From: Candidatus Saccharimonadales bacterium | GTDB taxonomy: Bacteria; Patescibacteriota; Saccharimonadia; Saccharimonadales; UBA10212 | Direction: 5' to 3' | NCBI GenBank assembly: GCA_040900055.1 | Contig: JBBDZU010000002.1 | Span: 18,425 to 82,424, forward strand | DNA length: 64,000 nt | The notes under the pieces: generated by a model | What the model saw: only the letters and a program-made list of their open reading frames with translations | The model's database searches: none | What the model was told of the DNA's origin: nothing | Translations under genes and position numbers: made by a program | In this document: positions 3,125-40,574 of the stretch, in pieces | Numbering within the stretch: position 1 is the first letter of the stretch | How the letters are laid out: the number at the start of each line of letters is the position of its first letter

Positions 3125-4006
3125 TCAAGGTGTTTTAATCTTGGCAAATTTAGCCCCAATAGATAAAAAGGCTTTACCTTTAATCGGGTATCTGCTGGGG
3201 ACTGAGGCAGTTTTTAGATGAACCGTAAGTCTGTCTACCGTTTGCCTATCGTACGCAAGAGCTTTTTCTCTTAGCCAATAGATAACCAGCTCATTAGCCA
3301 CATCTGTGGGCAGAGCAGAGAATTTCTGACGGTCGATAAGGCTATTTTTAGCTATTTTATGAGATATTGTCGCAATTGTTATATTAAGTTCCTCATCGAT
3401 TTTTGCGACTTTTTCGATATTATTTAGGATCTTTTGCTTATCTTCAGTCCCTAGCCCTAAGCTTCGCAACCGATTTCGGAGATATTTTTCATCTGTATTA
3501 GTGATGTCTTCCTGCCATTTAAGCTTGTGGGTTTTGGCATATTTGAGCAAATCGGCCTTAGGAACATTAATAAGTGGCCTCTTCACATTTGGGTTTCGCA
3601 AAATTGCTACTAATCCACGCCAGCCGCTGCCTCTTAAAGTATTAAGCAGGGCTGTTTCAACTAAATCGTCCTGATGGTGGGCCGTAATAATCGCCCTGGC
3701 CTGATATTTGTGCTTAACCTGAATAAGATACTGATAACGGGCGTCCCGCGCTTTTTCTTCACTGGCAGCTTTACCTAACCGAGCTTGGCCGACTTCAACT
3801 TCCAGGCTTGCGGCTCTAGCCGTTTTAACTACTAATTTTTCAGCCGTTTTGGCGGCCGCGCCCTGAATACCATGATTAAAATGAGCAATTACCAGGTCCA
3901 TGTTAGCGTGTTCGGCCTGTTTAGCCAGCAAATCAAGCAGTACCATCGAATCGACGCCGCCGCTCACAGCCACTACATACCGGCCCGCCGGGACATTAAT
4001 TTCCAT
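3125..4006 (-). CDS. tilS: tRNA(Ile)-lysidine synthase TilS (short form)
   Basis: 293 aa. PP-loop SGGVDS near the N-terminus and ITAHHQDD, consistent with TilS. Confidence 0.85.
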   Translation of the reverse strand: MEINVPAGRYVVAVSGGVDSMVLLDLLAKQAEHANMDLVIAHFNHGIQGAAAKTAEKLVVKTARAASLEVEVGQARLGKAASEEKARDARYQYLIQVKHKYQARAIITAHHQDDLVETALLNTLRGSGWRGLVAILRNPNVKRPLINVPKADLLKYAKTHKLKWQEDITNTDEKYLRNRLRSLGLGTEDKQKILNNIEKVAKIDEELNITIATISHKIAKNSLIDRQKFSALPTDVANELVIYWLREKALAYDRQTVDRLTVHLKTASVPSRYPIKGKAFLSIGAKFAKIKTP

Positions 4007-4164
4007 GACTTAATCTTATCCCAAGCCAGCCTAATTACTACTGTTAGATATTTGAAGAAGCCATAGAGGTAGAAGATAAAAGCGACCGCGGTATAAAAAG
4101 CTATCGCCCTAGGTAGCCACCGTCCTTTGATTTATAGTAGATAAGAGCAAAAAAACTAAATAGT

Positions 4165-5382
4165 TTGGCAGTTTCTATGCTTGATACTACTTATGGCCTT
4201 ATTTCGCGAGTCGCCAAGACCTTAAATTTGGACGAAAACCATGTGGCGGGGCTAACTTCAGCCAATCAAGAGCACATTTTCAAAATTTATCTTAAAAATG
4301 GCCAAGCTTTTCCGGCTTATCGGGTTCAGCACAGCAATAAACTTGGCCCGTATAAAGGCGGTATTCGTTTTCATCCAGAAGTTAGCTTGGAAGAAGTCCG
4401 AGCCCTAGCTATTATGATGAGCCTAAAAACGGCCGCCATGGGCTTACCATTAGGCGGCGGCAAGGGCGGCATAACAGTTGACCCAAAGTCGCTCAGTAGT
4501 GCCCAGCTAGAGGAGTTGAGCCGCGCTTACGTTCGTCATTTACAACCTCACATCGGACCAGACAAAGATATCCCAGCCCCCGATGTTAATACCGATCCGG
4601 TAATTATCGACTGGATGGTCGACGAGTACCAAAGACTAACCGGCGACGTAAGCACAGCCAGCTTTACCGGTAAAAGCTTGTCAGCCGGCGGCTCAAAGGG
4701 TCGAGATGCCGCCACCGGCCGGGGCGGCGTTATTGCTCTGGCTAAGCTTTTACAGCTGCAGGGCTCAAATGGCGCAAAGTTAACCTACGCTGTAGAGGGG
4801 TTTGGCAACGTGGGCTCTTATTTTGCGATCGTAGCAAAGCAGCAGCAGCCCGGCTGGAAGTTGGTAGCCGCCAGCGACTCATCGGCGGCGGTTTACAGTA
4901 CTACCGGCCTTGATGCTAAAGGCTTGGCAAATTTCAAATCGGCAGGTGGCCGGTTTGTCGACTACAAAAAAGCGGGAGTTGAAATCATCAGCCATAGCCA
5001 ACTCCTAGCTTTAGAAGTCGATGCTCTGGTTTTAGCGGCTTTGGGCGACAGCCTAAATTCGTCTAACTACCGCCAAGTTAAGGCCAAGTTTATAGTCGAG
5101 CTGGCTAACGGGCCGGTCAGTTTAGAGGCGCTTGATTACTTACAGGCTAAAGGAGTGGTTATTTTGCCAGACCTGGTGGCAAATGCTGGCGGCGTAGTGG
5201 TTAGTTACCTAGAATGGCTGCAAAACAAAAAAGGGCAAAATTGGCCGGAATCTAAAGTTAACACATCGCTAAAGATATATATGGTCAAAGCAGTAGAGGA
5301 TCTTTACAAAACAGCTACCTTCTACAAGGTTCCGCTCAAAGAAGCTGCTTTTATAAACGCCCTAAAAGTCCTGACAAAATAG
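4165..5382 (+). CDS. gdh: Glu/Leu/Phe/Val dehydrogenase family, glutamate dehydrogenase-like
   Basis: 405 aa. Catalytic-Lys motif GGGKGG and dinucleotide-binding EGFGNVG. The track start is TTG 4165; ATG at 4177 is an alternative. Confidence 0.85.
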   Translation: MAVSMLDTTYGLISRVAKTLNLDENHVAGLTSANQEHIFKIYLKNGQAFPAYRVQHSNKLGPYKGGIRFHPEVSLEEVRALAIMMSLKTAAMGLPLGGGKGGITVDPKSLSSAQLEELSRAYVRHLQPHIGPDKDIPAPDVNTDPVIIDWMVDEYQRLTGDVSTASFTGKSLSAGGSKGRDAATGRGGVIALAKLLQLQGSNGAKLTYAVEGFGNVGSYFAIVAKQQQPGWKLVAASDSSAAVYSTTGLDAKGLANFKSAGGRFVDYKKAGVEIISHSQLLALEVDALVLAALGDSLNSSNYRQVKAKFIVELANGPVSLEALDYLQAKGVVILPDLVANAGGVVVSYLEWLQNKKGQNWPESKVNTSLKIYMVKAVEDLYKTATFYKVPLKEAAFINALKVLTK

Positions 5383-5422: not shown

Positions 5423-5499
5423 GGCAGGGTAGCTCAGTTGGTTAGAGCGCAGGACTCATAAGCCTGAGGTCGCGAGTTCAATTCTCGCCCCTGCTACCA
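5423..5499 (+). tRNA. tRNA with anticodon CAT, elongator-Met-like
   Basis: 77-nt cloverleaf read by eye: acceptor GGCAGGG/CCCTGCT, D loop AGTTGGTTA, anticodon loop CTCATAA, T arm GCGAG-TTCAATT-CTCGC, encoded CCA. The D loop matches the E. coli elongator Met type. Confidence 0.85.
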
Positions 5500-5864
5500 T
5501 ATCAAGTTTTCTTATTCGCTTAATATCGCATCTATTTCGTCGAATTGCTCGCCGCCCGGGAGCAATTCATAACCTATATCGGCAGCCATGTTAATTAATC
5601 CTTTTTGTTTTTATTTTTTAGCTTTCCTAAGCTAAATTCTACACGCTGCAAGCATAAGCTGTAAAGAACATTTTTTATCCGCCAGCTGGCGGACTCACTA
5701 CTGGGCTTGCTTAAGAACTGGCTTTCTGCTTAACTACCGGCATAGGAATCTTATCTGTTCTGTTCGTGAAGTGCAGTGGAACCAAAGCTTTTGCTAGGAC
5801 CGGCCTGAACGTAAACCAGACTATAAGGGGTCGTTCCTAGGTAACTAACTAAGTAAGGATACAC

Positions 5865-6137
5865 ATGTACAAACTATTTGTAGGTGGCCTACCCTTTGCT
5901 ACAACTGACGATGAGCTTAAGGAATTATTTTCTGCTCACGGTACAGTTGCATCAGCAAGCGTAGTCCGCGACCGCGACAGCGGCCGCAGCAAGGGCTTTG
6001 GTTTCGTCGAATACGAAAAGGACGAAGAAGGCAAAGCGGCTGAAAAAGCGCTCAACGGCTCAGAAATCGGTGGACGCAGCATTTCGGTAGCCGAAGCCCG
6101 ACCTCGTGAGGACCGACCTCAACGAAACAGCTGGTAA
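5865..6137 (+). CDS. RRM-type RNA-binding protein
   Basis: 90 aa. RNP2 LFVGGL and RNP1 KGFGFVEY. A 365-nt untranslated region lies upstream. Confidence 0.9.
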   Translation: MYKLFVGGLPFATTDDELKELFSAHGTVASASVVRDRDSGRSKGFGFVEYEKDEEGKAAEKALNGSEIGGRSISVAEARPREDRPQRNSW

Positions 6138-6153
6138 TTTTAAACTAGCTTTT

Positions 6154-6184
6154 AAAAAACTCCCCAGGATTGGGGAGTTTTTTG
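6154..6184 (+). terminator. rho-independent terminator of the RRM protein gene
   Basis: AACTCCCCA-ggat-TGGGGAGTT followed by TTTTTT, 17 nt after the stop codon. Confidence 0.8.
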
Positions 6185-6244
6185 ATTGTCTTCTACCATT
6201 GACAAACACTCTGTAACAGATTAGAATACGGTCTCGGTAATCGA

Positions 6245-6319
6245 CGCGGGGTGGAGCAGTAGTAGCTCGCGTGGCTCATAACCACGAGGTCGCAGGTGCA
6301 AATCCTGCCCCCGCTACCA
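6245..6319 (+). tRNA. initiator tRNA-fMet (CAT)
   Basis: Starts CGCGGGGTGGAGCAG like bacterial initiators. Position 1:72 is unpaired (C:U). Anticodon loop CTCATAA, encoded CCA. The T loop reads TGCAAAT (G at position 55). Confidence 0.85.
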
Positions 6320-6350
6320 AGACAGATTTTGACGTTTTTTGTTAGATATT

Positions 6351-6800
6351 TTAGTTTTGGGAGAGGCGCCTGCCTAGTAAAAAATCGCGCCAATCTTGCA
6401 AATTCTTACTAATGCCCTGGCTTTCTTGGCTTTCCAAATCGGTAGCAGCAACTGTTTGGGGCACCGATTTAGGGTCGATGTATTTTAATGCGGTTTCTTT
6501 AGGTATTAATATTACTTTCTCGCCAGGTGCAGCCAAGCCAAAATTTTCCCGTGCCGCTAGTTCTAAATATTGGTCGGTCTCAAAATACTGAGTTTGAAGC
6601 TGGGTGTTTTGATTTTGCAGGTTTAATACAACATTTTCTTGTCTAAGTACCGATATTTGTTTTTGCAGTTCGTAGTTAGTCTGCAAAGTTTTTATACCAC
6701 TCCATGTCATTGCCAGTACAAACAAAACAAAAAGATACAGCCCAATGTTACGCAGGTCGGTAAAGTGTTTAAGTCGGCTGTTATTTAAAAGGTTGGCCAT
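6351..6800 (-). CDS. septum formation initiator family protein (FtsB/DivIC-like)
   Basis: 149 aa. One N-terminal TM helix, then a Gln/Leu-rich coiled coil and the ARENFGL motif typical of FtsB/DivIC. Confidence 0.7.
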   Translation of the reverse strand: MANLLNNSRLKHFTDLRNIGLYLFVLFVLAMTWSGIKTLQTNYELQKQISVLRQENVVLNLQNQNTQLQTQYFETDQYLELAARENFGLAAPGEKVILIPKETALKYIDPKSVPQTVAATDLESQESQGISKNLQDWRDFLLGRRLSQN

Positions 6801-6846
6801 ACCCTAATTATAGCCCACTCATCTGTTATAATTGATTATTGCTCAA

Positions 6847-6922
6847 GGGGGTGTAGCTCAGTGGTTAGAGCAGTCGGCTCATAACCGATTGGCCGTAGGT
6901 TCAATTCCTACCACCCCCACCA
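6847..6922 (+). tRNA. tRNA with anticodon CAT, candidate tRNA-Ile2 (lysidine substrate) or second Met
   Basis: 76-nt cloverleaf: acceptor GGGGGTG/CACCCCC, D loop AGTGGTTA, anticodon loop CTCATAA, T arm GTAGG-TTCAATT-CCTAC, CCA. The D arm and variable loop resemble E. coli tRNA-Ile2, and tilS is in the window. Confidence 0.8.
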
Positions 6923-10158: not shown

Positions 10159-11598
10159 TTAAGGTGTTAGCTGAGTCTTGGCAGCTGCCGCCAAGACCTT
10201 TTTGGTTTTCAAATGCTTGGTAGCAGCTAAAACAACCAGCCCGAAAAAGCCGTAAAAAACTAGCATAGCAACCGGGCTAATGGTGGCATGCACCAGCGCC
10301 GACGGCACCGAGGCCAACAAACGAATAATATCCAGCATAAAAGTCATAAGCATTACCGCCGGCCAGGCAAACCAGCCGGCTATTGGCGCGACTAACATAC
10401 CGCCCATACCGGCCACAGCCGACAGCAGCATAGCTACCGGCACCAGCGGCACAATAATGCCATTAGCCACTAAGGCTACCAGCGACAGCTGGCCAAAGAT
10501 TAGCATAATCAGCGGCAAGGTCATTATCTCTGCGGCTAGTGTTTCAATGACGGCCAATGTTATCAATTTAGGTCTTTTGCTAAACAGCCGCTTAACAATT
10601 ACCGGTGCCACGATTAAAATGCCGAAAAAGGCCAAAAACGACAGATACCAGCCCACATCTCCCCAAATATAAAACGGCCGCGCATAGGCCGTTATGGCCG
10701 CCGCTAAAGCCAAGACAAGCAGCGGCCTAGCCTGACGGCCATAATACCAAGCCCAAAGTCCTAAGCTCGAGACTACCGCTGCCCTAACAATCGAGGCACT
10801 AAAACCGGTTATAACTACAAATAGTCCAATTAAGCTAAGAGACAAAACCAATTTTTGATATTTTGAGCCCAATCGCAAACGAGACACGGCTCTGACCAAA
10901 ATGGTCAGGTTATAGCCAGACACAGCCACAATATGCACCAAGCCCACGGTTACTAGCTGCTGGTTAATCTCGGCCGGCATAGTGTTTCGTTGGCCCACCA
11001 AGATCCCTAACCCAAAAGACGCCGCCGGTTCGGGCAAAGCACTTTGGATGCCGGCTGTAAATTTGCGGGTAAGCCGGTTAAGCCAGCTGGTGTCTGGACC
11101 AAGCTTGTCCAACTTGGAGTAGCTAATCCGTGCCTGGTTAGCGCCACGCGTGGGGTATAGTTTGCCGCTAATTTGCACCCGGTCACCTCGGTAAACAATC
11201 GGTTCGCCAAAGCCGCTAACGCGGAAAATACCAGTTAGCGGCTTTGACGTGGGTTTTAACAGACTAACCTCGCCGGCCGTAAATTCTAGTTGCGAACCAC
11301 GGGCATAAATGGAGTCACTCCTGGCCGTCGCTTGGATGGTGACTTCTTGGCCGGCTAAGGCTTTAATCTCGTCTAACTTTTGCATAAATAGGCCGCCGCG
11401 CCAAAGCCCTATACCTAGCCCTAAAATTATTACAATCGTAAGGCTCGTTATGTTTTTGTGTTTTAAGAGCAGTAAGGCGGGCGCGAAGATAAGCCACCAA
11501 GCTGCCGGTTCAATATGGACTCGCCGGGCCGCCACTAAGCCGGCCAATACCGCCAAGGCTGCCACCATAATTAAAGTGGTACGGCGGTACCTTTTCAC
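10159..11598 (-). CDS. comEC: ComEC/Rec2-family DNA internalisation channel without a C-terminal metallo-beta-lactamase domain
   Basis: Polytopic membrane protein with an N-terminal OB-like segment (QVTIQATARSD...YRGDRVQISGKLY) and a competence-domain TM bundle. The track ORF extends to 11784, but that extension covers an intergenic repeat and a terminator hairpin. Start placed at GTG 11598 (ATG 11568 is an alternative). Confidence 0.75.
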   Translation of the reverse strand: MKRYRRTTLIMVAALAVLAGLVAARRVHIEPAAWWLIFAPALLLLKHKNITSLTIVIILGLGIGLWRGGLFMQKLDEIKALAGQEVTIQATARSDSIYARGSQLEFTAGEVSLLKPTSKPLTGIFRVSGFGEPIVYRGDRVQISGKLYPTRGANQARISYSKLDKLGPDTSWLNRLTRKFTAGIQSALPEPAASFGLGILVGQRNTMPAEINQQLVTVGLVHIVAVSGYNLTILVRAVSRLRLGSKYQKLVLSLSLIGLFVVITGFSASIVRAAVVSSLGLWAWYYGRQARPLLVLALAAAITAYARPFYIWGDVGWYLSFLAFFGILIVAPVIVKRLFSKRPKLITLAVIETLAAEIMTLPLIMLIFGQLSLVALVANGIIVPLVPVAMLLSAVAGMGGMLVAPIAGWFAWPAVMLMTFMLDIIRLLASVPSALVHATISPVAMLVFYGFFGLVVLAATKHLKTKKVLAAAAKTQLTP

Positions 11599-11661
11599 AA
11601 TTCGTGTAATTATGGCATAGATGGGTTCGAGCGTTAATTGCTCATGGTTTTCAGGACACCA

Positions 11662-11688
11662 CGCAAAAAGCCCAGCATAAGGCTGGAC
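11662..11688 (-). terminator. terminator-like hairpin immediately 3' (minus strand) of repeat copy A
   Basis: Minus strand reads TCCAGC-cttat-GCTGGG followed by CTTTTTG. The terminal pair is G:U on the minus-strand RNA but a C:A mismatch on the plus strand. Confidence 0.5.
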
Positions 11689-11696
11689 TCTTTGTA

Positions 11697-11780
11697 TGGA
11701 GGGCCACCGTGAACGCTGTAGCAACTGCAATTCAAAGTAGACGACGGATTCATATTTCCATAGTCGGCGTTGACTACAGC
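11697..11780 (-). repeat. tRNA-Lys-3'-end-like intergenic repeat, copy A
   Basis: The plus strand starts TGGAGGGCCACCGTGAACGCTGTAGCAACTGCAATTC, 34/37 identical to copy D. It shares TGGAGGGCC with the complement of the tRNA-Lys 3' end. GCTGTAG (11715-11721) can pair with CTACAGC (11774-11780). Confidence 0.7.
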
Positions 11781-11882
11781 CCATTGTAGTTATAAGCTAT
11801 AATAATTAATAAGGAGACCGCTGCAGGCTCCGTTAAATCGTTAATTAACTAACCAACAAAGAACAATGAATTAAGGGCAAAT

Positions 11883-12800
11883 ATGAAAAAGTTTCATAGG
11901 CATTCAATAATAACTGTACTGGTAGTCGCATCTGTGCTTGGTCTAGCTGGGGTAGTTATGACCTCTCCTGCAGGATATGCGGCACATCCCACAGTAAACC
12001 TTCGAACAGCCGAACCGTTTGCCATACTGTCTGGCACTGGGATTACGAACGTTCCAACCTCTACCATTACCGGAAATATTGGAGTGCACCCAACCACTGG
12101 CGCATCCATGACCGGAATATCGTGTTCTGAAGTGATTGGGACAATATATGATATTGACGGCACATTTGCAGGTGCATGCGAGGTAGTAGATCCTGCTCTG
12201 CTGAATACGGCCAAGATCGACTTGGTCACCGCCTATGACGATGCTGCCGGACGAACACCGGTGACGACTGTACCAACCGAGCTGGGTGGTACTACTAAAA
12301 CCGATGGTGTTTACAACTCTGCCTCGACCACATTCGAAATTACTGCAGGAGCAGGTCCTTTAGTCCTTGATGGACAAGGCAATCCCAATGCCGTGTTCAT
12401 CTTCCTGATGAACTCAGGCGCAACCGGACTCACCGTAGGATCGGGTAGTACCGTGTCTCTGATTAACGGTGCCCAAGCCTGCAACGTCTTTTGGAAACTC
12501 AACACCGCCACTATTGACACAACCGCGGTGTTCAAGGGCAATATTCTAGCTCTTACCTCAATCACGGTGGCCAACGGTGCAAACATAGAGGGAAGACTGC
12601 TAGCCCGCAATGGCAACGTCACATTAATTAGCGACACAATTACGAGGGCTGTTTGCGCGGCAACAACTACTCCAGGACTGCCAAATGCGGGAATTGGTTC
12701 TGAGGACAAGAGCGGCATCTCATGGAACATCATCATTCCAGCTGGGATTGTCGTTGCCCTATTCTCGCTGCATCTAGCTCGAAAGAAACAGGCAGTTTAG
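11883..12800 (+). CDS. ice-binding-like (DUF3494) surface protein with a C-terminal sortase sorting signal
   Basis: 305 aa with a signal peptide. AEPFAILSGTGITN...ITGNIGVHP is typical of DUF3494. The C-terminus is LPNAG, a spacer, the hydrophobic stretch IIIPAGIVVALFSLHL, then ARKKQ. Confidence 0.85.
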   Translation: MKKFHRHSIITVLVVASVLGLAGVVMTSPAGYAAHPTVNLRTAEPFAILSGTGITNVPTSTITGNIGVHPTTGASMTGISCSEVIGTIYDIDGTFAGACEVVDPALLNTAKIDLVTAYDDAAGRTPVTTVPTELGGTTKTDGVYNSASTTFEITAGAGPLVLDGQGNPNAVFIFLMNSGATGLTVGSGSTVSLINGAQACNVFWKLNTATIDTTAVFKGNILALTSITVANGANIEGRLLARNGNVTLISDTITRAVCAATTTPGLPNAGIGSEDKSGISWNIIIPAGIVVALFSLHLARKKQAV

Positions 12801-12858
12801 TCCAAGCATTAAGAAGAGTTAGCAAATATGTTTGCCCTGCCTGCAGGTAAGCAAGGAG

Positions 12859-12895
12859 AGCCAGACCAACCTTTGTCTGGCTTGTGTGGTTATTT
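12859..12895 (+). terminator. hairpin / partial terminator between the surface-protein gene and the sortase gene
   Basis: AGCCAGAC-caaccttt-GTCTGGCT followed by the T-rich TGTGTGGTTATTT, ending at the sortase ATG. Confidence 0.45.
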
Positions 12896-13522
12896 ATGAA
12901 CTTACCGAAAACCTTATCAAGACGAATGCTGCTGCTAGTTACTCTTGCAGGATTTGCGGCTTCTGCAGCACTTACTTTTCATTTTATCTTAAACCGCCCA
13001 ATCCAGAGCGACTCGGCCGTGCTTAAGGTACCCACTGCTAGTCTTCATAAGCCAGAGACAGTTGAAGAAGTAAGTTATGGGTTGCCGATGCGTCTCAAAA
13101 TTCCAAAGATCAATATTGATGCTCGTCTCGACAATGTGGGTCTTACGCCTCAGGGAGATCTGGATGTACCGAAAGGCCCCGCTAACGCAGCCTGGTACCA
13201 TCTTGGGGTACGTCCCGGGCAAAAAGGGAGCTCTGTTATTGTCGGGCATTTCGGCTATAAAAATCGCATACCAGCAGTCTTTGATAACTTACATAAATTG
13301 CAAGAGGGAGACAATCTATACGTCGAAGATGAAAAGGGGGCGACTATTTCCTTCGTGGTGCGCGAAAGCCGAAAGTATGAACCAAATGCGGACGCTTCAA
13401 GCGTGTTTCTTTCAAACGATGGAAAAGCGCATCTTAATCTCATTACGTGCCAGGGAGTTTGGAATGAGACCCAGAAAAGTTATTCTACTCGACTGGTAGT
13501 ATTTGCCGATAAAGAAACTTAA
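12896..13522 (+). CDS. sortase (class E/F-like transpeptidase)
   Basis: N-terminal TM anchor, catalytic His region VIVGHFGY, catalytic Cys in LNLITCQG, and a conserved Arg near the end (STRLVVFA). Start placed at ATG 12896 inside the track ORF. Confidence 0.85.
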   Translation: MNLPKTLSRRMLLLVTLAGFAASAALTFHFILNRPIQSDSAVLKVPTASLHKPETVEEVSYGLPMRLKIPKINIDARLDNVGLTPQGDLDVPKGPANAAWYHLGVRPGQKGSSVIVGHFGYKNRIPAVFDNLHKLQEGDNLYVEDEKGATISFVVRESRKYEPNADASSVFLSNDGKAHLNLITCQGVWNETQKSYSTRLVVFADKET

Positions 13523-13944
13523 GTAAGCTTGGAATCTGTACGATTGAGGTTTATTAGTTTTACAATACCCCAAGCAATGAGTGCGTAAACTGCAGCAGCA
13601 ACTAGTATAGAAGGCTCAAAGACCGAGCGAACATCGCCCGTTTTTGTACTAGTTACATTAAAAATACTATCGAAAGGCGCCGTTAAGATACCAGTTATAG
13701 TGTAGATAAAATCTACAAAACCGTTGGTTGGGTTTGCTCCAAGTAGTTTCAGCACAAACCGAAAGCCAATCAAAATTTCAATAACTCCAAGAAGATACCA
13801 AACAGCACTTGCCGCAGTTGATTTGCTGTCAGTCCCAACTTTAGTATCGACTTTTCGGGTATGTTGCTGAACCCGCGCTCCTGTTTGGTCTACTCCTTCA
13901 TCCTGACTAGTCGTAACTGTTTCCTTGAATTCTGCCATATACAC
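13519..13944 (-). CDS. YggT-family-like membrane protein
   Basis: 141 aa. After a polar N-terminal stretch, the two-TM core FRFVLKLLGANPTNGFVDFIYTITGILTAPF matches the YggT pattern. Confidence 0.55.
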   Translation of the reverse strand: MYMAEFKETVTTSQDEGVDQTGARVQQHTRKVDTKVGTDSKSTAASAVWYLLGVIEILIGFRFVLKLLGANPTNGFVDFIYTITGILTAPFDSIFNVTSTKTGDVRSVFEPSILVAAAVYALIAWGIVKLINLNRTDSKLT

Positions 13945-13990
13945 CCCTAATTAATTACCTTTATTATACTCCCCCGATTCATTGGGTTTT

Positions 13991-14019
13991 CAAAAATAAA
14001 ATTCCTCGCTGAAGAGGAT
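13991..14019 (-). terminator. terminator-like hairpin immediately 3' (minus strand) of repeat copy B
   Basis: Minus strand reads TCCTC-ttcagc-GAGGA followed by ATTTTATTTTTG. Confidence 0.5.
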
Positions 14020-14023
14020 TTTG

Positions 14024-14090
14024 TGGAGGGCCACCGTAGAGACTATTGCAACTAAAATGGCAATGTCAAACAACATCCATATTTCTAGAT
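14024..14090 (-). repeat. tRNA-Lys-3'-end-like intergenic repeat, copy B
   Basis: Plus strand reads TGGAGGGCCACCGTAGAGACTATTGCAACTAAAAT... It shares the first 14 nt and the GCAAC core with copies A and D, and a downstream CATATTTC box with A. Confidence 0.65.
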
Positions 14091-14109
14091 TGATGTTAGA
14101 ATAAAATAA

Positions 14110-14898
14110 ATGGATTTACAGCAAAATCAAGATCCACAAAATCAAAACCCCACACCACCAGAACCACAGTCAAATCCTAATACTACAGTTCCTGCTCCGT
14201 CCAATTCAAAACATACGCCACGAATTGCCATCATTGGGCTACTATTAGCTGTTGTTATTGCACCAGTAGGCCTTATTACCTCCATATTGGCGTGGCGGAA
14301 AATAAAGAAATATTCACTTGGGGGTAAGTGGTTGGCAATTACTGGCACTGTCTTAGGAGCTCTATTGATTTTGCCTTTTATATTATTTGCCTGGTTATTC
14401 ATTGCTCTTGGAGCCTGGCATGGTAATCAAGCCCAAAAGGATTTTGATCCCATTGCAAGACAAATTGTGGATATGGGAGGCACTAAACTCTGTAATAACG
14501 GCGATAGTGGCTATGGCATAGATAACACTACACCTTGGTACCAGGTTTACTATACAGTCCCGAATACTTCAGATTTAACAAGTGAGGTGAAGAACATAGC
14601 AAGCCAGCAAGAATACCAACTAAGCACAGATACGAACTTTATTAATCAATTAAAAGGTCTACCGGAGCAAAGAGGAGAATTGGAAGGAGTATATGTAACA
14701 CCATATGGAGATGAACAGTTCAATCCCAAATCAGATTATTTAATTGGTCAAAGTGGGAATAAATCTTTGAAAGTCACAATAAATCGTCAAACTTCAGTTG
14801 CATTGTACTGTGGCGTTGAGGACTATGGAAAGAAGCAGCCGACAGGTAGTAACGCAATTCTAGACTTTAGCCTTACTTTACCCGATAGAAATCTCTAA
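14110..14898 (+). CDS. membrane protein with a Pro/Gln-rich N-terminus and a DUF4190-like two-TM segment
   Basis: 262 aa. The TM pair IAIIGLLLAVVIAPVGLITSILAW...WLAITGTVLGALLILPF is followed by a soluble C-terminal domain of unknown family. Confidence 0.55.
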   Translation: MDLQQNQDPQNQNPTPPEPQSNPNTTVPAPSNSKHTPRIAIIGLLLAVVIAPVGLITSILAWRKIKKYSLGGKWLAITGTVLGALLILPFILFAWLFIALGAWHGNQAQKDFDPIARQIVDMGGTKLCNNGDSGYGIDNTTPWYQVYYTVPNTSDLTSEVKNIASQQEYQLSTDTNFINQLKGLPEQRGELEGVYVTPYGDEQFNPKSDYLIGQSGNKSLKVTINRQTSVALYCGVEDYGKKQPTGSNAILDFSLTLPDRNL

Positions 14899-14922
14899 GT
14901 AAGGCTATAACGCTTATGGTTG

Positions 14923-14945
14923 TGGAGGGCCCACCGGTATAGCAC
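14923..14945 (-). repeat. tRNA-Lys-3'-end-like repeat, copy C (short variant)
   Basis: TGGAGGGCCCACCGGTATAGC. The first 11 nt are identical to the complement of the tRNA-Lys 3' end (TGGAGGGCCCA). It differs from copies A, B and D by two single-base insertions. Confidence 0.55.
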
Positions 14946-15071
14946 TCGGCTATGCCTCGTTATATCCGCTCCTGCGTTACTCGAAATAAACTTCTGTGCG
15001 TGGCTTCGCTACACCGAACCCGCTTTTGCTAGACGCAAAGGACCCTGGTTCTCATCCCAAGGAAGAACGAC

Positions 15072-15110
15072 CAGTGAAAATACCCGGCTCAAGGCCGGGC
15101 ATTTTCACTG
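15072..15110 (-). terminator. 17-bp hairpin immediately 3' (minus strand) of repeat copy D
   Basis: CAGTGAAAATACCCGGC-tcaag-GCCGGGCATTTTCACTG. The single A:C mismatch on the plus strand becomes a G:U pair on the minus-strand RNA. The T-rich run is part of the stem, so this is not a canonical terminator. Confidence 0.45.
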
Positions 15111-15183
15111 GAGGGCCACCGTGAAGGCTGTAGCAACCGCCATTCGGGGCAGCCAGCAACTACATATTAGCACTATTCCATAC
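15109..15183 (-). repeat. tRNA-Lys-3'-end-like intergenic repeat, copy D
   Basis: Plus strand reads TGGAGGGCCACCGTGAAGGCTGTAGCAACCGCCATTC... with a downstream CATATT box. Intergenic. Confidence 0.7.
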
Positions 15184-15207
15184 CTGTGCTAAAAGAAGTT
15201 GGAACTG

Positions 15208-15369
15208 TTATCCAGACTGTTGAGTATTCTCAATTGCAAGTTTTACGATTTCCAAATTACAGCTTTTGTACTGTTTGCACCAAGCCTCACACTTTTCAGC
15301 TGTCTCTTTATCTCTGTAATGGAAGCCGCATTCAGGGCACTGGTAAACTTTGTCTTTCTTATCGTTCAT
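15208..15369 (-). CDS. small Cys-rich protein (53 aa), unannotated, translationally coupled to the glutaredoxin gene
   Basis: Below the ORF-track size cutoff. Its ATG (15369-15367) overlaps the TGA of the upstream gene as ATGA. Translation: MNDKKDKVYQCPECGFHYRDKETAEKCEAWCKQYKSCNLEIVKLAIENTQQSG, stop TAA at 15210-15208. It has CxxC plus three further Cys. Confidence 0.6.
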   Translation of the reverse strand: MNDKKDKVYQCPECGFHYRDKETAEKCEAWCKQYKSCNLEIVKLAIENTQQSG

Positions 15370-15614
15370 AGGTTAAGGGCGGCATCTAGTTTGGCTTTAT
15401 CAAAGCCCAGAATTACAACTTCACTGTCGTCATCTTTAGTAATGTGCGTACAAGGGACACCCATGTTGCCACAGGTATCAAGGGATGCTTGAATTTGTCC
15501 AGGTTGTTTATCGAGAAGTATATCCTCAAATGTAATATTTTTGCTCTGCAAATAGGCTTTTTCTGCCCTACAGTACGGACAGGTTGTAGTTGAGTAGATC
15601 TTTACCTTTGTCAT
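15366..15614 (-). CDS. glutaredoxin / NrdH-like redoxin
   Basis: 82 aa. Active site CPYC at residues 12-15 and a thioredoxin-fold-sized protein. Confidence 0.85.
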   Translation of the reverse strand: MTKVKIYSTTTCPYCRAEKAYLQSKNITFEDILLDKQPGQIQASLDTCGNMGVPCTHITKDDDSEVVILGFDKAKLDAALNL

Positions 15615-15639
15615 AGTATCCTCCTTGGTTTAGGTGAAC

Positions 15640-15948
15640 TTAGAATATATTGCTGTTTTTATTGACTCTGTGGGTTTCAATATTCCATATCCCTAAACTT
15701 GGTGTTGCGTCAGCGGCTTGGAAAACACGAACCGCAGGTGGTACTTTTTCAGTTTGTCGCATGTGATCCAAATCCTCTTGACTACGCCAGTGTGTCATAA
15801 TTCGCCAAGATGTTGCCTGACTCTGGGATTGAATAAGAAAAGTTTGATGTATGCCCTCCGGCACATTAGCGGTTTCTTTATCGTAAGCATCTTTTAGAGC
15901 TTGCCAATTACTTTCTGCTACTTCAGCGTCTAGGATTGTAATAACCAT
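15640..15948 (-). CDS. small dimeric alpha/beta-barrel (ABM monooxygenase-like) protein
   Basis: The track ORF extends to 16035 but reads through tRNA-Lys. Start placed at Met 15948 (MVITILDAEV...). Size and the WRSQEDLDHM pattern fit an ABM-like fold only loosely. Confidence 0.4.
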   Translation of the reverse strand: MVITILDAEVAESNWQALKDAYDKETANVPEGIHQTFLIQSQSQATSWRIMTHWRSQEDLDHMRQTEKVPPAVRVFQAADATPSLGIWNIETHRVNKNSNIF

Positions 15949-16002
15949 AGAAGCAAGTATAACAAAAACGACCTCAACTTCAGAGATCAAAATGCTTATG
16001 CT

Positions 16003-16080
16003 TGGAGGGCCCAGTGGGATTCGAACCCACGACACGCGGCTTAAAAGGCCGCTGCTCTAACCAGGCTGAGCTATGGGCCC
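16003..16080 (-). tRNA. tRNA-Lys (anticodon TTT)
   Basis: Reverse complement GGGCCCATAGCTCAGCCTGGTTAGAGCAGCGGCCTTTTAAGCCGCGTGTCGTGGGTTCGAATCCCACTGGGCCCTCCA. Full cloverleaf, anticodon loop CTTTTAA, encoded CCA. Confidence 0.9.
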
Positions 16081-16154
16081 ATTTATCTCTAAAAATGGGC
16101 GATTTAACACCTTATATTATCTGTTGCTTAAGCTATAAGTCAACCGTCAGTTGG

Positions 16155-16622
16155 TTATTTCCTGAAGTGTTTCATACCGCTAAACCAAACCACCGCTAGG
16201 CTAGCTATGGCGGTGCCCGCTACCAGGTAGGTTTGGGCTTTTGAAAGTTCTGTCCAGATTCCAGAATCGGTGTAGTTAACTATGCCGGCCTGGACTAGCG
16301 CTGGGCCAGCTAGTAGGGCCGATACGGCTCCGGCTCCCAACCCAATAGCAACTTGTAAAATAAATAGCGGGCCGCGCCATACGCTTTTGCGACTAAGAAT
16401 CAAAGTTAGCACCAGCGGTACTAAGATTAGAAAAATATTAATCTGGCTAAAATCGGTCCAAACTCCAGCGTCATTTAATAATCCTTGGATATCGCTGGTC
16501 GCAAACATGGCTGTAATAAATCCGGCACATAGGCTCAAAAAACCTAATGAGGCGTTACTTTTAAGAAAATAAGTCAAAAGGGCCGGCGCTAAAATTATTA
16601 AAACCAGAATAATTTCTGCCAT
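16155..16622 (-). CDS. hypothetical polytopic membrane protein
   Basis: 155 aa with four to five hydrophobic helices. No family recognised. Confidence 0.5.
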   Translation of the reverse strand: MAEIILVLIILAPALLTYFLKSNASLGFLSLCAGFITAMFATSDIQGLLNDAGVWTDFSQINIFLILVPLVLTLILSRKSVWRGPLFILQVAIGLGAGAVSALLAGPALVQAGIVNYTDSGIWTELSKAQTYLVAGTAIASLAVVWFSGMKHFRK

Positions 16623-16695
16623 GCGCTAATTTTAGCACAAGCACTTTCGTACTCTCTCTAAGCAAATACTCATCTATGAATGCCCTCCGACTCCT

Positions 16696-16735
16696 CGTAT
16701 ACTCACGTACTAGTATACTAGTACGTGAGTATACG
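16696..16735. repeat. perfect 40-nt palindrome (copy 1 of 2)
   Basis: CGTATACTCACGTACTAGTA|TACTAGTACGTGAGTATACG, with no mismatch and no loop. It lies between rimK (stop 16819) and the 16622 gene start. The 34-nt core recurs at 48017-48050. Confidence 0.9.
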
Positions 16736-16818
16736 TAGAAGAGGATCTTAGATTAGAGATTGGTGCTTAGCAACTTAATAACGAGGATAAAGGGGTGCGG
16801 TCAAGAGCTAGCGCATTT

Positions 16819-17736
16819 TTAAGCGCCGACGCGGTCTTTACGGCGTCGAGCCTTGGCATTACGCTCTACGTATTCGATAACCTTTTCAACCACATTACGG
16901 CCAGTGACTTGCTCGATGCTTGACCCCGGGCTGGAGTTAACTTCTAGCACCAGCGGACCGCGCTTGCTGCGAATTAGATCTACGCCGGCAATGCTAAGCC
17001 CCATGGCTTTAGCGGCTTTGACGGCAACTTTGCGTTCTTCGTCCGTTAGTTTAATGGAGGTGCCTGTGCCACCTTGGTGTATGTTGGAGCGAAATTCTTC
17101 TTCCAAGTTAAGGCTTTGACGCTTCATAGAAGCAACAACTTTACCACCGACCACATAAGCTCTAATGTCACTGCCCTCGGCTTCTTCTATGTACTCTTGG
17201 AGTAGGATGTTGGTGCCTTCTTCTTCCATCAAGTAAAAGCCCTGAAGTACCGACCGGGCGGCTTTACGAGTTTCGGCCAAGACCACGCCGCGACCGTGAG
17301 TCCCACGGGCTAATTTGATGATAATCGGTAACCCACCAAGCTCCTCGATTATGTTGTCCACATCGGCCATACCACGCGAGAAAATAGTTTTAGGAATACC
17401 AATACCGGCACGGGCAAGCAGCTGGATACTGCGGAGCTTGTCTCGGGAACGCACAATGGCAATCGAACTAGCCGTAGTAAAGACCCCCTGCATTTCAAAC
17501 TGCCGTACAACAGCTGAGCCATAACGCGTATTGGAAGAAGCAATGCGAGGGATAATAGCATCAATACCTGACAAAACTTCACCGTTATACAAAATTACCG
17601 GATTATTTTGCTGAATACGGGCTTCGCACTGCAGATAGTTAATAACTTGCACATCATGGCCCCTTTTTTTGGCCTCTTCTACAAGCCTCTTTGTCGAGTA
17701 GTTGCCAGGACCTTTGGATAAAATGGCTATATTCAT
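16819..17736 (-). CDS. rimK: RimK-family ATP-grasp alpha-L-glutamate ligase
   Basis: MNIAILSKGPGNYSTKRL start and ATP-grasp motifs (IIKLARGTHGRGV, EVNSSPG). The track ORF starts 16 codons earlier at 17784 and would overlap the upstream gene. Confidence 0.88.
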   Translation of the reverse strand: MNIAILSKGPGNYSTKRLVEEAKKRGHDVQVINYLQCEARIQQNNPVILYNGEVLSGIDAIIPRIASSNTRYGSAVVRQFEMQGVFTTASSIAIVRSRDKLRSIQLLARAGIGIPKTIFSRGMADVDNIIEELGGLPIIIKLARGTHGRGVVLAETRKAARSVLQGFYLMEEEGTNILLQEYIEEAEGSDIRAYVVGGKVVASMKRQSLNLEEEFRSNIHQGGTGTSIKLTDEERKVAVKAAKAMGLSIAGVDLIRSKRGPLVLEVNSSPGSSIEQVTGRNVVEKVIEYVERNAKARRRKDRVGA

Positions 17737-17740
17737 GATA

Positions 17741-18196
17741 TTACTTTCTTTGGTAACGATACTTGGAGCCTTTTGCAGCGTCAACTAAAAAGCCGTGGCG
17801 CCTTAAAAAGCTTCGTCCTATTAAGACGCCTTTCATCATAGTACTGCGGTCGGCCAAGCTGATGTTTATAGGGTACTGAACACGCCGGATAACAACCGTG
17901 GTTGGAACAATGTAGCGTGTTTGGATTATGCCGTTAGAGCTGCGCACTTCCTTTTTTTGAAAACCAACTACAGTAATGCGTGGCTCTTTACCATAAGAAA
18001 GAAAGCTGACAGCCTTTTCTCCTGTAGGCAATAGCTCTTCTTTAATGCCAGTAGCGTGAAGAGCGCCAGAAAGAGCGCCGGTATCAACCTTGGCAATAAC
18101 ATCAATAACGCCAAAGTCCGGAAAGCTGACTTTCTCAAAAGCCCCGATAAGTTTGCGCATACCTCTAAATTTGAGCATATCTCTGTATAATACCAT
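17741..18196 (-). CDS. RimK-associated retropepsin-like aspartic protease (DUF785 family)
   Basis: 151 aa. AKVDTGA aspartic-protease signature, C-terminal LIGRSFLR..FLVD, and the typical position immediately upstream of rimK. Confidence 0.75.
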   Translation of the reverse strand: MVLYRDMLKFRGMRKLIGAFEKVSFPDFGVIDVIAKVDTGALSGALHATGIKEELLPTGEKAVSFLSYGKEPRITVVGFQKKEVRSSNGIIQTRYIVPTTVVIRRVQYPINISLADRSTMMKGVLIGRSFLRRHGFLVDAAKGSKYRYQRK

Positions 18197-18219
18197 AATT
18201 AAGGTATATATGCAAGAGG

Positions 18220-40398: not shown

Positions 40399-40449
40399 TC
40401 AGTCCAATAGTTGGATGTCCAAGTATCTAAGCGATCCTGCTCGGGAGCT

Positions 40450-40548
40450 TTTATTTGGTTTTGCTGTGTCGGACTTCCCTGGGATGGGTTACCGTTGCGG
40501 CACAGTTCCGGATTTGCACCGGATTCCAGCAATCTAATTGTTAATAAA
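40450..40548 (-). promoter_or_regulatory. cobalamin-type riboswitch aptamer (compact form)
   Basis: The minus strand contains GGAATCCGGTGCAAATCCGGAACTGTGCCGCAACGGTAA...CCAGGGAAGTCC...CAGCAAAACC. Nested helices: TTTATT/AATAAA, TTGCTG/CAGCAA, CTGTG/CACAG, CCGG/CCGG, CCG/CGG. It matches the conserved cobalamin-riboswitch core as recalled from the btuB leader. No GCCACTG B12 box. Confidence 0.75.
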
Positions 40549-40574
40549 CCCAATATAACACGTCAGCTTTGGAC

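Follow-up and report, generated by a model that had tools for sequence, protein, structure and literature searches.

Intergenic boxes behind tRNA-Lys as probable recombination sites of an integron-like cassette array in Saccharibacteria

Chromosomal integrons and CALINs (clusters of attC sites lacking integron-integrases), for example the array of Vibrio cholerae repeats (VCR), are long one-directional arrays of short units, each consisting of an open reading frame (ORF) and a repeat. The attC repeat is an imperfect hairpin of 55-140 nt with the motifs R'' (RYYYAAC) and R' (GTTRRRY), and integron repeats were first noticed as an unexplained intergenic repeat family, like the boxes described here. 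Islands can also accrete at tRNA genes. In tycheposons, elements insert at a tRNA, accretion pushes the older elements outward, and scattered partial tRNAs are left behind (Hackl et al., bioRxiv 10.1101/2020.12.28.424599). In this study we analyzed a 64,000-nt stretch of DNA from a Candidatus Saccharimonadales bacterium (contig JBBDZU010000002.1; the whole stretch is called the window), in which three intergenic boxes, A, B and D, share an end with the gene of tRNA-Lys(UUU). We consider it probable that these boxes are att-type recombination sites which close the gene cassettes of a hypervariable, integron-like array downstream of tRNA-Lys. Judged by analogy, chromosomal integrons/CALINs and tycheposon-type island accretion at tRNAs appear to be the functionally closest systems. 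No description of such arrays in Saccharibacteria or other Patescibacteria was found in the literature searched.

The coordinates of all features are collected in Table 1. The exact 14-mer TGGAGGGCCACCGT is common to boxes A, B and D. With up to two mismatches it has 4 matches in the window against 0.74 expected, and no shuffle out of 100 gave as many as 4. For the 8-mer GCCCTCCA there are five occurrences in the 64 kb, always on the minus strand and always between 11.7 and 16.0 kb, namely A, B, C, D and tRNA-Lys itself. A first-pass annotation of the window had described A to D as a strand-specific repeat family of four copies, with an end common to the tRNA-Lys 3' end and a hairpin beside each copy. 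Much of this description holds: all four quoted sequences were found in place, A and D are identical at 34 of 37 positions, A, B and D share a CATATT box 54-55 nt further on, and both ARAGORN and Rfam put tRNA-Lys in the same orientation as the copies. The family has to be narrowed, since A, B and D are one element but C differs and is a partial copy of the tRNA-Lys 3' end. A hairpin with a U-tract does follow directly after each of A, B and D, but it belongs to the downstream sequence and not to the box.

The same annotation had suggested a search for copies in relatives, and pattern scans found many. The first scan, with the pattern TGGAGGGCCACCGT-N10-GCAAC and one genome per species, returned 52 loci, where about 4 chance matches are expected by our estimate; 45 of the 52 are Saccharibacteria or Patescibacteria metagenome-assembled genomes, or contigs of the same content binned elsewhere. 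The second scan, with a relaxed pattern over metagenome contigs, returned at least 120 further loci. Both scans together give at least 172 loci (numbered with the prefix L), at least 165 of which are of Saccharibacteria type. Seven pattern matches were set aside as not Saccharibacteria. L024 and L047 look like chance matches. L012, L017, L019, L026 and L043, which match the pattern of the first scan, were judged by composition and mutual similarity to be GC-rich actinobacterial contigs; they share ...CTTGTTGCGNGGCTCGCCACGGTGGCCCTCCATGCACTCGA..., seemingly one homologous stretch that looks coding, and it is unrelated to the Saccharibacteria element.

Family-wide conservation is limited to about 30 nt on the tRNA strand, AGTTGCGATAGCGTCTAC-NR-TGGCCCTCCA, and the flanking sequence varies from copy to copy. 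The last 9-10 nt of the box form the core, which is the 3' end of tRNA-Lys (...C(T/C)GGCCCTCCA), and the box has T where the local tRNA-Lys(UUU) has G. An unbiased logo was built from 108 secondary sites that neither search pattern had selected. It shows blocks of fixed length, GTTGC / ATA / AC / TGGCCCTCCA, with freely variable positions between them, and therefore has the look of a protein-recognition site. The resemblance to the tRNA would arise because boxes and tRNA are interchangeable recombination partners sharing this core. Duplication of the tRNA end as an att site, which had been raised as a full explanation of the similarity, largely accounts for the likeness, since such partners share the core; the 20-nt arm of the box, however, is unrelated to the tRNA, and a duplicated tRNA end thus does not make up the whole box.

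The arrangement of the sites is strict. In the 0.92 Mb of the 165 Saccharibacteria-type loci, 450 matches to the core lie on the tRNA strand and 5 on the opposite one. Of these loci, 78 have a gene of tRNA-Lys (CUU or UUU), and in every one of the 78 it shares the strand of the sites and precedes all of them at the 5' end; among the 87 loci without it, 73 end less than 1.5 kb before the first site. Sites are mostly spaced by 0.5-1 kb, with a maximum of 12 sites in 13 kb. For most unique boxes (169 of 223, or 76%), a co-oriented ORF ends no more than 60 nt before the box, and in 26 cases the first two bases of the box are part of its stop codon, TAG. On the upstream side of the tRNA are conserved core genes, e.g. 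FolD. Inside the arrays, 79% of 377 ORFs are co-oriented with the tRNA, and they are mostly singletons. The Pfam families of the cargo include PIN, YafQ, ParE, FitA, NUDIX, AAA_18/33 kinases, HAD, histidine phosphatases and APH, as well as methyltransferases, epimerases, heliorhodopsin and a pair of sortase and Ice_binding genes; this pair is the tRNA-proximal cassette in L005 and is also found in cassette 4 of the window.

Cassettes have been exchanged between genomes, and the junctions are exact. The members of the pairs L001/L018, L004/L051 and L034/L048 are at least 97% identical over the 120 nt that lead up to the box and through the box itself, and unrelated directly after CCTCCA; for L034/L048 the upstream homology extends over more than 3 kb. 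Sites 5948 and 7014 of L035 are the mirror case, where the upstream sequence differs and the downstream sequence is identical. One cassette lies behind a box variant in L003 and behind tRNA-Lys in L004 (89.7% identity, 628 nt), and a toxin-antitoxin cassette of two genes has 96.6% identity between L001 and L030 but different neighbours. L006 and L078 are 91-98% identical in the tRNA region and the adjoining X module (a short unit between two cores, described below), and L006 has one extra three-gene cassette of 2,450 nt. This cassette lies between two cores, and the sequence beyond it is what directly follows the first core of L078. The sequence after the core is of a few types, which are interchangeable behind the tRNA or the boxes: ATACGCTTATGCTTAAAC followed by a hairpin, a T-run, a TGnTAnAAT promoter and an ATG 6-8 nt further on; AGCATAAGCA followed by a hairpin; or a hairpin followed by an X module. 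The AGCATAAGCA trailer of cassette 1 in the window also follows boxes in other genomes. The loci are thus made of one-directional units of ORF and repeat that vary between strains and are exchanged at the repeat, which is the functional definition of an integron-like cassette array.

Some loci depart from the usual order of tRNA and boxes. A second complete tRNA-Lys replaces the box at a cassette end in L004 (oriented 3849-3925 and 4308-4384), L030 (oriented 4065-4141 and 5713-5789) and L101, and L001:2655 (oriented) is a decayed copy of such a cassette-end tRNA-Lys. The array of L168 starts behind tRNA-Trp (oriented 5677-5791), and its first site is a short tRNA-Lys fragment, GTGTCCCAGATGGCCCTCCA.

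According to the model that we propose, a cassette on the tRNA strand would begin with a 5' module (trailer ATACGCTTATGCTTAAAC or AGCATAAGCA, terminator hairpin and promoter), continue with one to three cargo genes, and end with the 20-nt arm AGTTGCGATAGCGTCTAC-NR and the core TGGCCCTCCA. Strand exchange by a site-specific recombinase acting in trans would take place inside the shared core or at its end, and the left partner would be either the box arm or the T-arm/acceptor region of the tRNA. A circular or incoming cassette could then insert behind the tRNA or behind any box, and it could be lost again. The enzyme, the position of the crossover within the core and the circular intermediate are steps that we infer.

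In the same model, the hairpins would be the intrinsic terminators of the next cassette and would keep the units transcriptionally separate. In the 80 nt that follow the site, a terminator-like hairpin is present for 65% of the tRNA-Lys genes and for 51% of the boxes, compared with 5% of random windows. The hairpins segregate with the downstream module and not with the box, and in the window each of them directly precedes a promoter, that of the ABM-domain gene, of the YGGT gene or of comEC. We read them as insulating terminators at unit starts for these two reasons. It had been pointed out earlier that the single G:U in the A and D stems pairs on the minus strand only, so that the hairpins suit minus-strand transcripts. 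This is correct, and it is what insulating terminators lead one to expect. An extended -10 box, TGnTAnAAT, directly after the T-run of a terminator, with ATG or GTG 6-10 nt further on, is common in cassette genes and flanking genes; examples are 15940-15965, 13938-13970 and 11598-11640 in the window, and there are many at other loci. The short distance from the -10 box to the start codon suggests, at the level of sequence, widespread leaderless mRNAs.

When compared with integrons and CALINs, the arrays have further points in common besides their long one-directional layout. In both, the repeat starts at the stop codon or shortly behind it, closely related strains hold different cassettes, and the cargo is highly diverse, often of unknown function and rich in toxin-antitoxin genes. 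Unlike attC, however, the box is a 30-nt site conserved in sequence, without R''/R' (RYYYAAC...GTTRRRY) in attC order and without a hairpin of its own. The array is also anchored on a tRNA 3' end and not on an attI beside intI, and its cassettes carry their own terminator and promoter. Motif scans revealed no IntI-like gene adjoining the first site, where the upstream neighbours are FolD, RimK, comEC and similar genes.

With tRNA islands and tycheposons the arrays share integration at a tRNA 3' end, regeneration of the tRNA, and a direct repeat at the far boundary. The islands are several kb or larger, encode their own integrase and use tRNA-derived att repeats of about 40 nt, whereas the units here measure 0.5-2.5 kb, no integrase was found in them, and identity to the tRNA covers only 9-10 nt; the remaining 20-nt arm, unrelated to the tRNA, is reused by hundreds of unrelated cassettes. 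Islander recognizes an island by an intact tRNA with a displaced 3' fragment and by an integrase inside the island. The former is present here, with a fragment of 11 nt at site C and of 16-21 nt at X-type sites, in contrast to the 9-10 nt that the boxes share with the tRNA end, but neither motif scans nor Pfam analysis of the in-array proteins gave an integrase.

Site C and the X modules fit the tRNA-island and tycheposon pattern exactly. The core of site C (14923-14933), TGGGCCCTCCA, is identical over 11 nt to the local tRNA-Lys. X modules of 110-320 nt between two cores are common across the loci. At the start of each of them is a long hairpin, and the CCA of the preceding core is part of its stem; the last 11-21 nt of each are those of the 3' end of the local tRNA-Lys. 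Between hairpin and module there is no space for a promoter. The copy in the window has a bidirectional terminator hairpin at 15071-15111, and its body contains GGGTTCGG, the start of the tRNA T-arm. This motif is invariant in type I, to which the window copy belongs, and a long-range helix pairs the T-arm start with the 3' strand of the T-stem; both halves of the helix may be copies of the local tRNA. Type II is about 150 nt long. An alignment of 12 copies gives four or five helices with 46 predicted pairs, 24 of which have compensatory changes, and one G:U pair kept in 11 of the 12 copies places the structure on the tRNA-sense strand. The 5' part of type II is an inverted, diverged tRNA 3' end, and its 3' part copies the end of the local tRNA-Lys in direct orientation. 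Neither type has a match in Rfam (window and 19 loci, at the gathering threshold and at permissive E-values). The modules may act either as RNA or in the form of folded single-stranded DNA.

Modules exploiting Xer recombination, namely the integrative mobile elements exploiting Xer (IMEX) at dif and the pdif modules of Acinetobacter plasmids, are also small and recombinase-less and lie between short conserved sites, and they are moved in trans by a housekeeping recombinase. The cassette trailer TTATGCTTAAA resembles TTATGTTAAAT, which we take to be the XerD arm of dif, and this is a lead only; we know of no reference dif site for the phylum of Saccharibacteria. No partially palindromic 11-6-11 site, with two 11-bp arms for XerC/XerD around a 6-bp spacer, was recognized in the arrays, and all sites are direct and anchored on a tRNA and not on dif.

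Several results weigh against reading the boxes as recombination sites. Motifs of tyrosine and serine recombinases, searched by regular expressions only, are absent from the window and about 0.98 Mb of loci, and no recombinase is found among 1,226 clustered neighbouring ORFs or 241 Pfam-scanned in-array proteins. The recurrent neighbours in this clustering are housekeeping genes. No excised circle was seen, nor any contig with terminal repeats among those checked, and a phage or plasmid attP had to be discarded, the box being absent from viral contigs in two scans. The box is not visibly palindromic, unlike classical core sites of tyrosine recombinases. The subfamily of the window has 35 nt of additional conserved sequence that a recombination site does not require (see below). 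Furthermore, a break of homology at the end of a repeat is also expected from homologous recombination between repeats, and it would fit this alternative that a duplicated stretch of about 50 nt, made up of core, trailer and hairpin, flanks the insertion that separates L006 from L078.

As neither an enzyme nor a viral carrier nor a circular contig was found, recombination at short homologies is a serious rival, although we rate it as rather unlikely. The same array would then have been built without a dedicated recombinase, by RecA-dependent exchange after natural DNA uptake. The tRNA, the 30-nt boxes and the trailer and hairpin modules of about 50 nt would be the anchors of homology, and boxes would persist as the cassettes carrying them spread. 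Saccharibacteria do take up DNA naturally, comEC adjoins the array, and none of the roughly 170 loci has a linked recombinase. Besides the flanking duplication in L006/L078, a segmental duplication of about 1 kb in L003 (oriented 1615-2613 and 3576-4574) comprises gene, box and gene, so that it spans the box and is not bounded by it, and, compared with the window, L016 and L046 have the block of tRNA and array turned around between its flanks. However, 30-50 nt is very short for efficient homologous recombination, and conserved blocks with variable positions at fixed length point to recognition by a protein and not to selection for overall identity. One strict orientation, with the tRNA always first, is typical of site-specific insertion. 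In addition, the difference between T in the box and G in tRNA-Lys(UUU) has been retained, where conversion driven by homology would tend to erase it. Site-specific recombination at the boxes is therefore the reading that we prefer.

A wider form of this preferred reading is put forward tentatively. The tRNA-Lys-anchored cassette array, with its new 30-nt box, a recombinase acting in trans (possibly a housekeeping one) and X cassettes with much structure on the tRNA-sense strand, could be a previously undescribed gene-capture platform of Saccharibacteria. The X cassettes built from the tRNA-Lys 3' end may then be folded recombination substrates or RNAs that mimic the tRNA. Saccharibacteria and other Patescibacteria are epibionts with tiny genomes, in which the acquisition of accessory genes is poorly understood. 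If the platform is real, a set of cassettes behind tRNA-Lys, conserved throughout the phylum, would be a main route of gene flux in these organisms, carrying toxin-antitoxin genes, small kinases, phosphotransferases, surface proteins and heliorhodopsin. The box would provide a simple sequence handle for mining the accessory gene pool from metagenomes, the array would offer geneticists a neutral and naturally permissive place for insertions in the few strains that can be cultivated, and there would be a new recombination system to look for.

An RNA function of the boxes is improbable. They could be small RNAs (sRNAs) with a tRNA-like CCA end, or a 3'-untranslated-region or processing signal that mimics the tRNA-Lys 3' end, in which case cassette transcripts would be trimmed or stabilized like a tRNA. 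The boxes are sense-oriented, after stop codons and before terminators, and so are probably transcribed, and the G:U pairs of the hairpins favour the tRNA-sense strand. For the box family in general, on the other hand, a consensus fold over 16 junctions reaches -0.71 kcal/mol with 0 compensatory pairs, no box has an Rfam match even at E <=10 (window and 19 loci), and the logo of 108 sites has no conserved motif upstream of the 30-nt box and thus no promoter of its own. An RNA role alone also leaves unexplained why there is a single locus behind tRNA-Lys, why the tRNA is always first and why swaps occur at the core. The earlier proposal of a family of sRNAs or leaders of 70-120 nt is not borne out, because conservation spans 30 nt only, the fold check on aligned copies gave no consensus structure for the general family, and 76% of the boxes trail a co-oriented stop codon and not a promoter of their own. 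The four repeats are therefore probably not sRNA genes, but an added RNA-level role for the box beside recombination is possible. Such repeats should not be annotated as sRNAs or tRNA pseudogenes.

Other identities were also considered. The elements had been said not to fold as tRNAs, and indeed ARAGORN and Rfam (gathering threshold, E <=10) report true tRNAs only; ARAGORN leaves no tRNA or transfer-messenger RNA (tmRNA) identity for the boxes. A C-terminal coding tag on the tRNA strand was rejected, as the three frames are open only for about 1-8 codons upstream of the box, and the reading ...TVALQ(Y)A* on that strand is an artefact. Pairing between box and trailer (AGCGU/ACGCU) has no covariation support. 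Clustered regularly interspaced short palindromic repeats (CRISPR) are ruled out by the spacing of 0.5-2.5 kb and the genes between copies. Like the boxes, repetitive extragenic palindromes (REP), bacterial interspersed mosaic elements (BIME) and miniature inverted-repeat transposable elements (MITE) are short intergenic repeats beside hairpins, but they are scattered genome-wide in either orientation and contain palindromes or terminal inverted repeats, whereas the boxes occupy one locus and one strand (450 against 5) and have no palindrome, so a REP- or MITE-like repeat, another of the earlier proposals, is dismissed.

Boxes A, B and D form a subfamily with nine copies in eight other loci (two of them in L102), in which an extra 35 nt is conserved upstream of the box. 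The extension contains TGnTAATAT in the tRNA-sense orientation at a fixed 27 nt upstream of the box, matching the local extended -10 promoters, and a second, degenerate copy of the half-box AGTTGCTAC. A hairpin between GGCUA and UGGCC of the core may also form. Both the promoter-like box and this hairpin speak for the RNA reading, but only 2 of 15 pairs in the hairpin are compensatory, the covariation term is +0.19, and the stem is broken in A and B. From its sequence the extension is ambiguous: it reads as a promoter-like box with a short transcript, as an antisense mini-ORF, or as a second (arm-type) binding site. A short transcript is possible only for this subfamily of the window. That the conservation marks a tiny gene on the plus strand, with GGAGGG (the complement of the core) as ribosome-binding site, a GTG start 6 nt further on and a peptide of 20-29 aa made of MKAVATAIQGSQQLHIS and a variable tail, is very improbable: the frame is open in twelve members, the differences are mostly at third positions (Ala GCC/GCG/GCA/GCT, Gly GGC/GGT/GGA, Gln CAA/CAG, Leu CTA/TTA, Ser AGC/AGT) and a conserved TGA closes the opposite tRNA-sense frame, but GTA replaces GTG in three members (B and both L102 copies) and in most copies of the general family, which thus have no start codon, the C-terminal tails are not conserved, the variable positions are the unpaired positions of the alternative hairpin, and the gene would account for the 35-nt extension only and not for the array. 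Apart from the window, the possible mini-ORF is seen in L016, L046, L052, L055, L064, L085, L089 and L102, and its substitutions have the look of a coding pattern.

Table 1. Features of the array in the window, in order along the tRNA strand, with possible mini-ORFs and examples of type II X modules (in loci of the scans) at the end.
Feature	Position	Strand	Remarks
tRNA-Lys(UUU)	16003..16080	-	ARAGORN and Rfam; 3' end ...CACTGGGCCCTCCA; anchor and first site of the array
Cassette 1	15139..16002	-	Trailer AGCATAAGCATT, terminator hairpin, TATACT promoter, three ORFs
Terminator hairpin, cassette 1	15969-15989	-	
ABM-domain gene, cassette 1	15640-15948	-	Leaderless; Pfam
Glutaredoxin gene, cassette 1	15366-15614	-	Pfam
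53-aa ORF, cassette 1	15208-15369	-	
Box D	15109..15138	-	GGTTGCTACAGCCTTCACGG and core TGGCCCTCCA; subfamily extension reaches 15168
X module type I	14923..15108	-	Non-coding, 186 nt; begins at the core of box D, ends in site C
Cassette 3	14054..14922	-	Trailer CAACCATAAGCGTTAT and DUF4190 gene
DUF4190 membrane-protein gene, cassette 3	14110-14898	+	Inverted relative to the array; Pfam
Box B	14024..14053	-	AGTTGCAATAGTCTCTACGG and core TGGCCCTCCA
Cassette 4	11727..14023	-	Terminator hairpin 14003-14018, TATAAT promoter, three genes
YGGT-family gene, cassette 4	13519-13938	-	Pfam
Sortase gene, cassette 4	12884-13522	+	Inverted relative to the array; Pfam
Ice_binding-like gene, cassette 4	11883-12800	+	Inverted relative to the array; Pfam
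Box A	11697..11726	-	AGTTGCTACAGCGTTCACGG and core TGGCCCTCCA; last site of the array
Terminator hairpin after box A	11669..11684	-	Insulates the array from the comEC promoter
comEC	10159..11598	-	Pfam; likely start GTG 11598 behind a CATAAT -10 box; conserved flank past the array
Possible antisense mini-ORF over box D	15121..15192	+	GGAGGG, 6 nt, GTG; peptide VKAVATAIRGSQQLHISTIPYLC
Possible antisense mini-ORF over box A	11709..11789	+	Peptide VNAVATAIQSRRRIHISIVGVDYSPL
Type II X modules, examples	L035:1843-2039(-), L096:102-298, L084:691-1074(-), L034:5152-5343, others		

The surroundings of the array are shared with other loci. comEC flanks the block of tRNA and array also in L016 and L046, where the block from tRNA-Lys to the last box is inverted compared with the window (10159-18200) between the same flanking genes, with comEC on one side and a 155-aa membrane protein, RimK and a Zn protease on the other. 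Look-ups of exact protein sequences gave no record for two proteins of the window. Elsewhere in the window, a cobalamin riboswitch aptamer was detected at 40445-40563(-) with 33.9 bits, barely over the Rfam gathering score of 31.5. Three tRNA-Met(CAT) genes lie within 1.5 kb at 5423-6922(+), and they may be the initiator, the elongator and a tRNA-Ile2-type gene.

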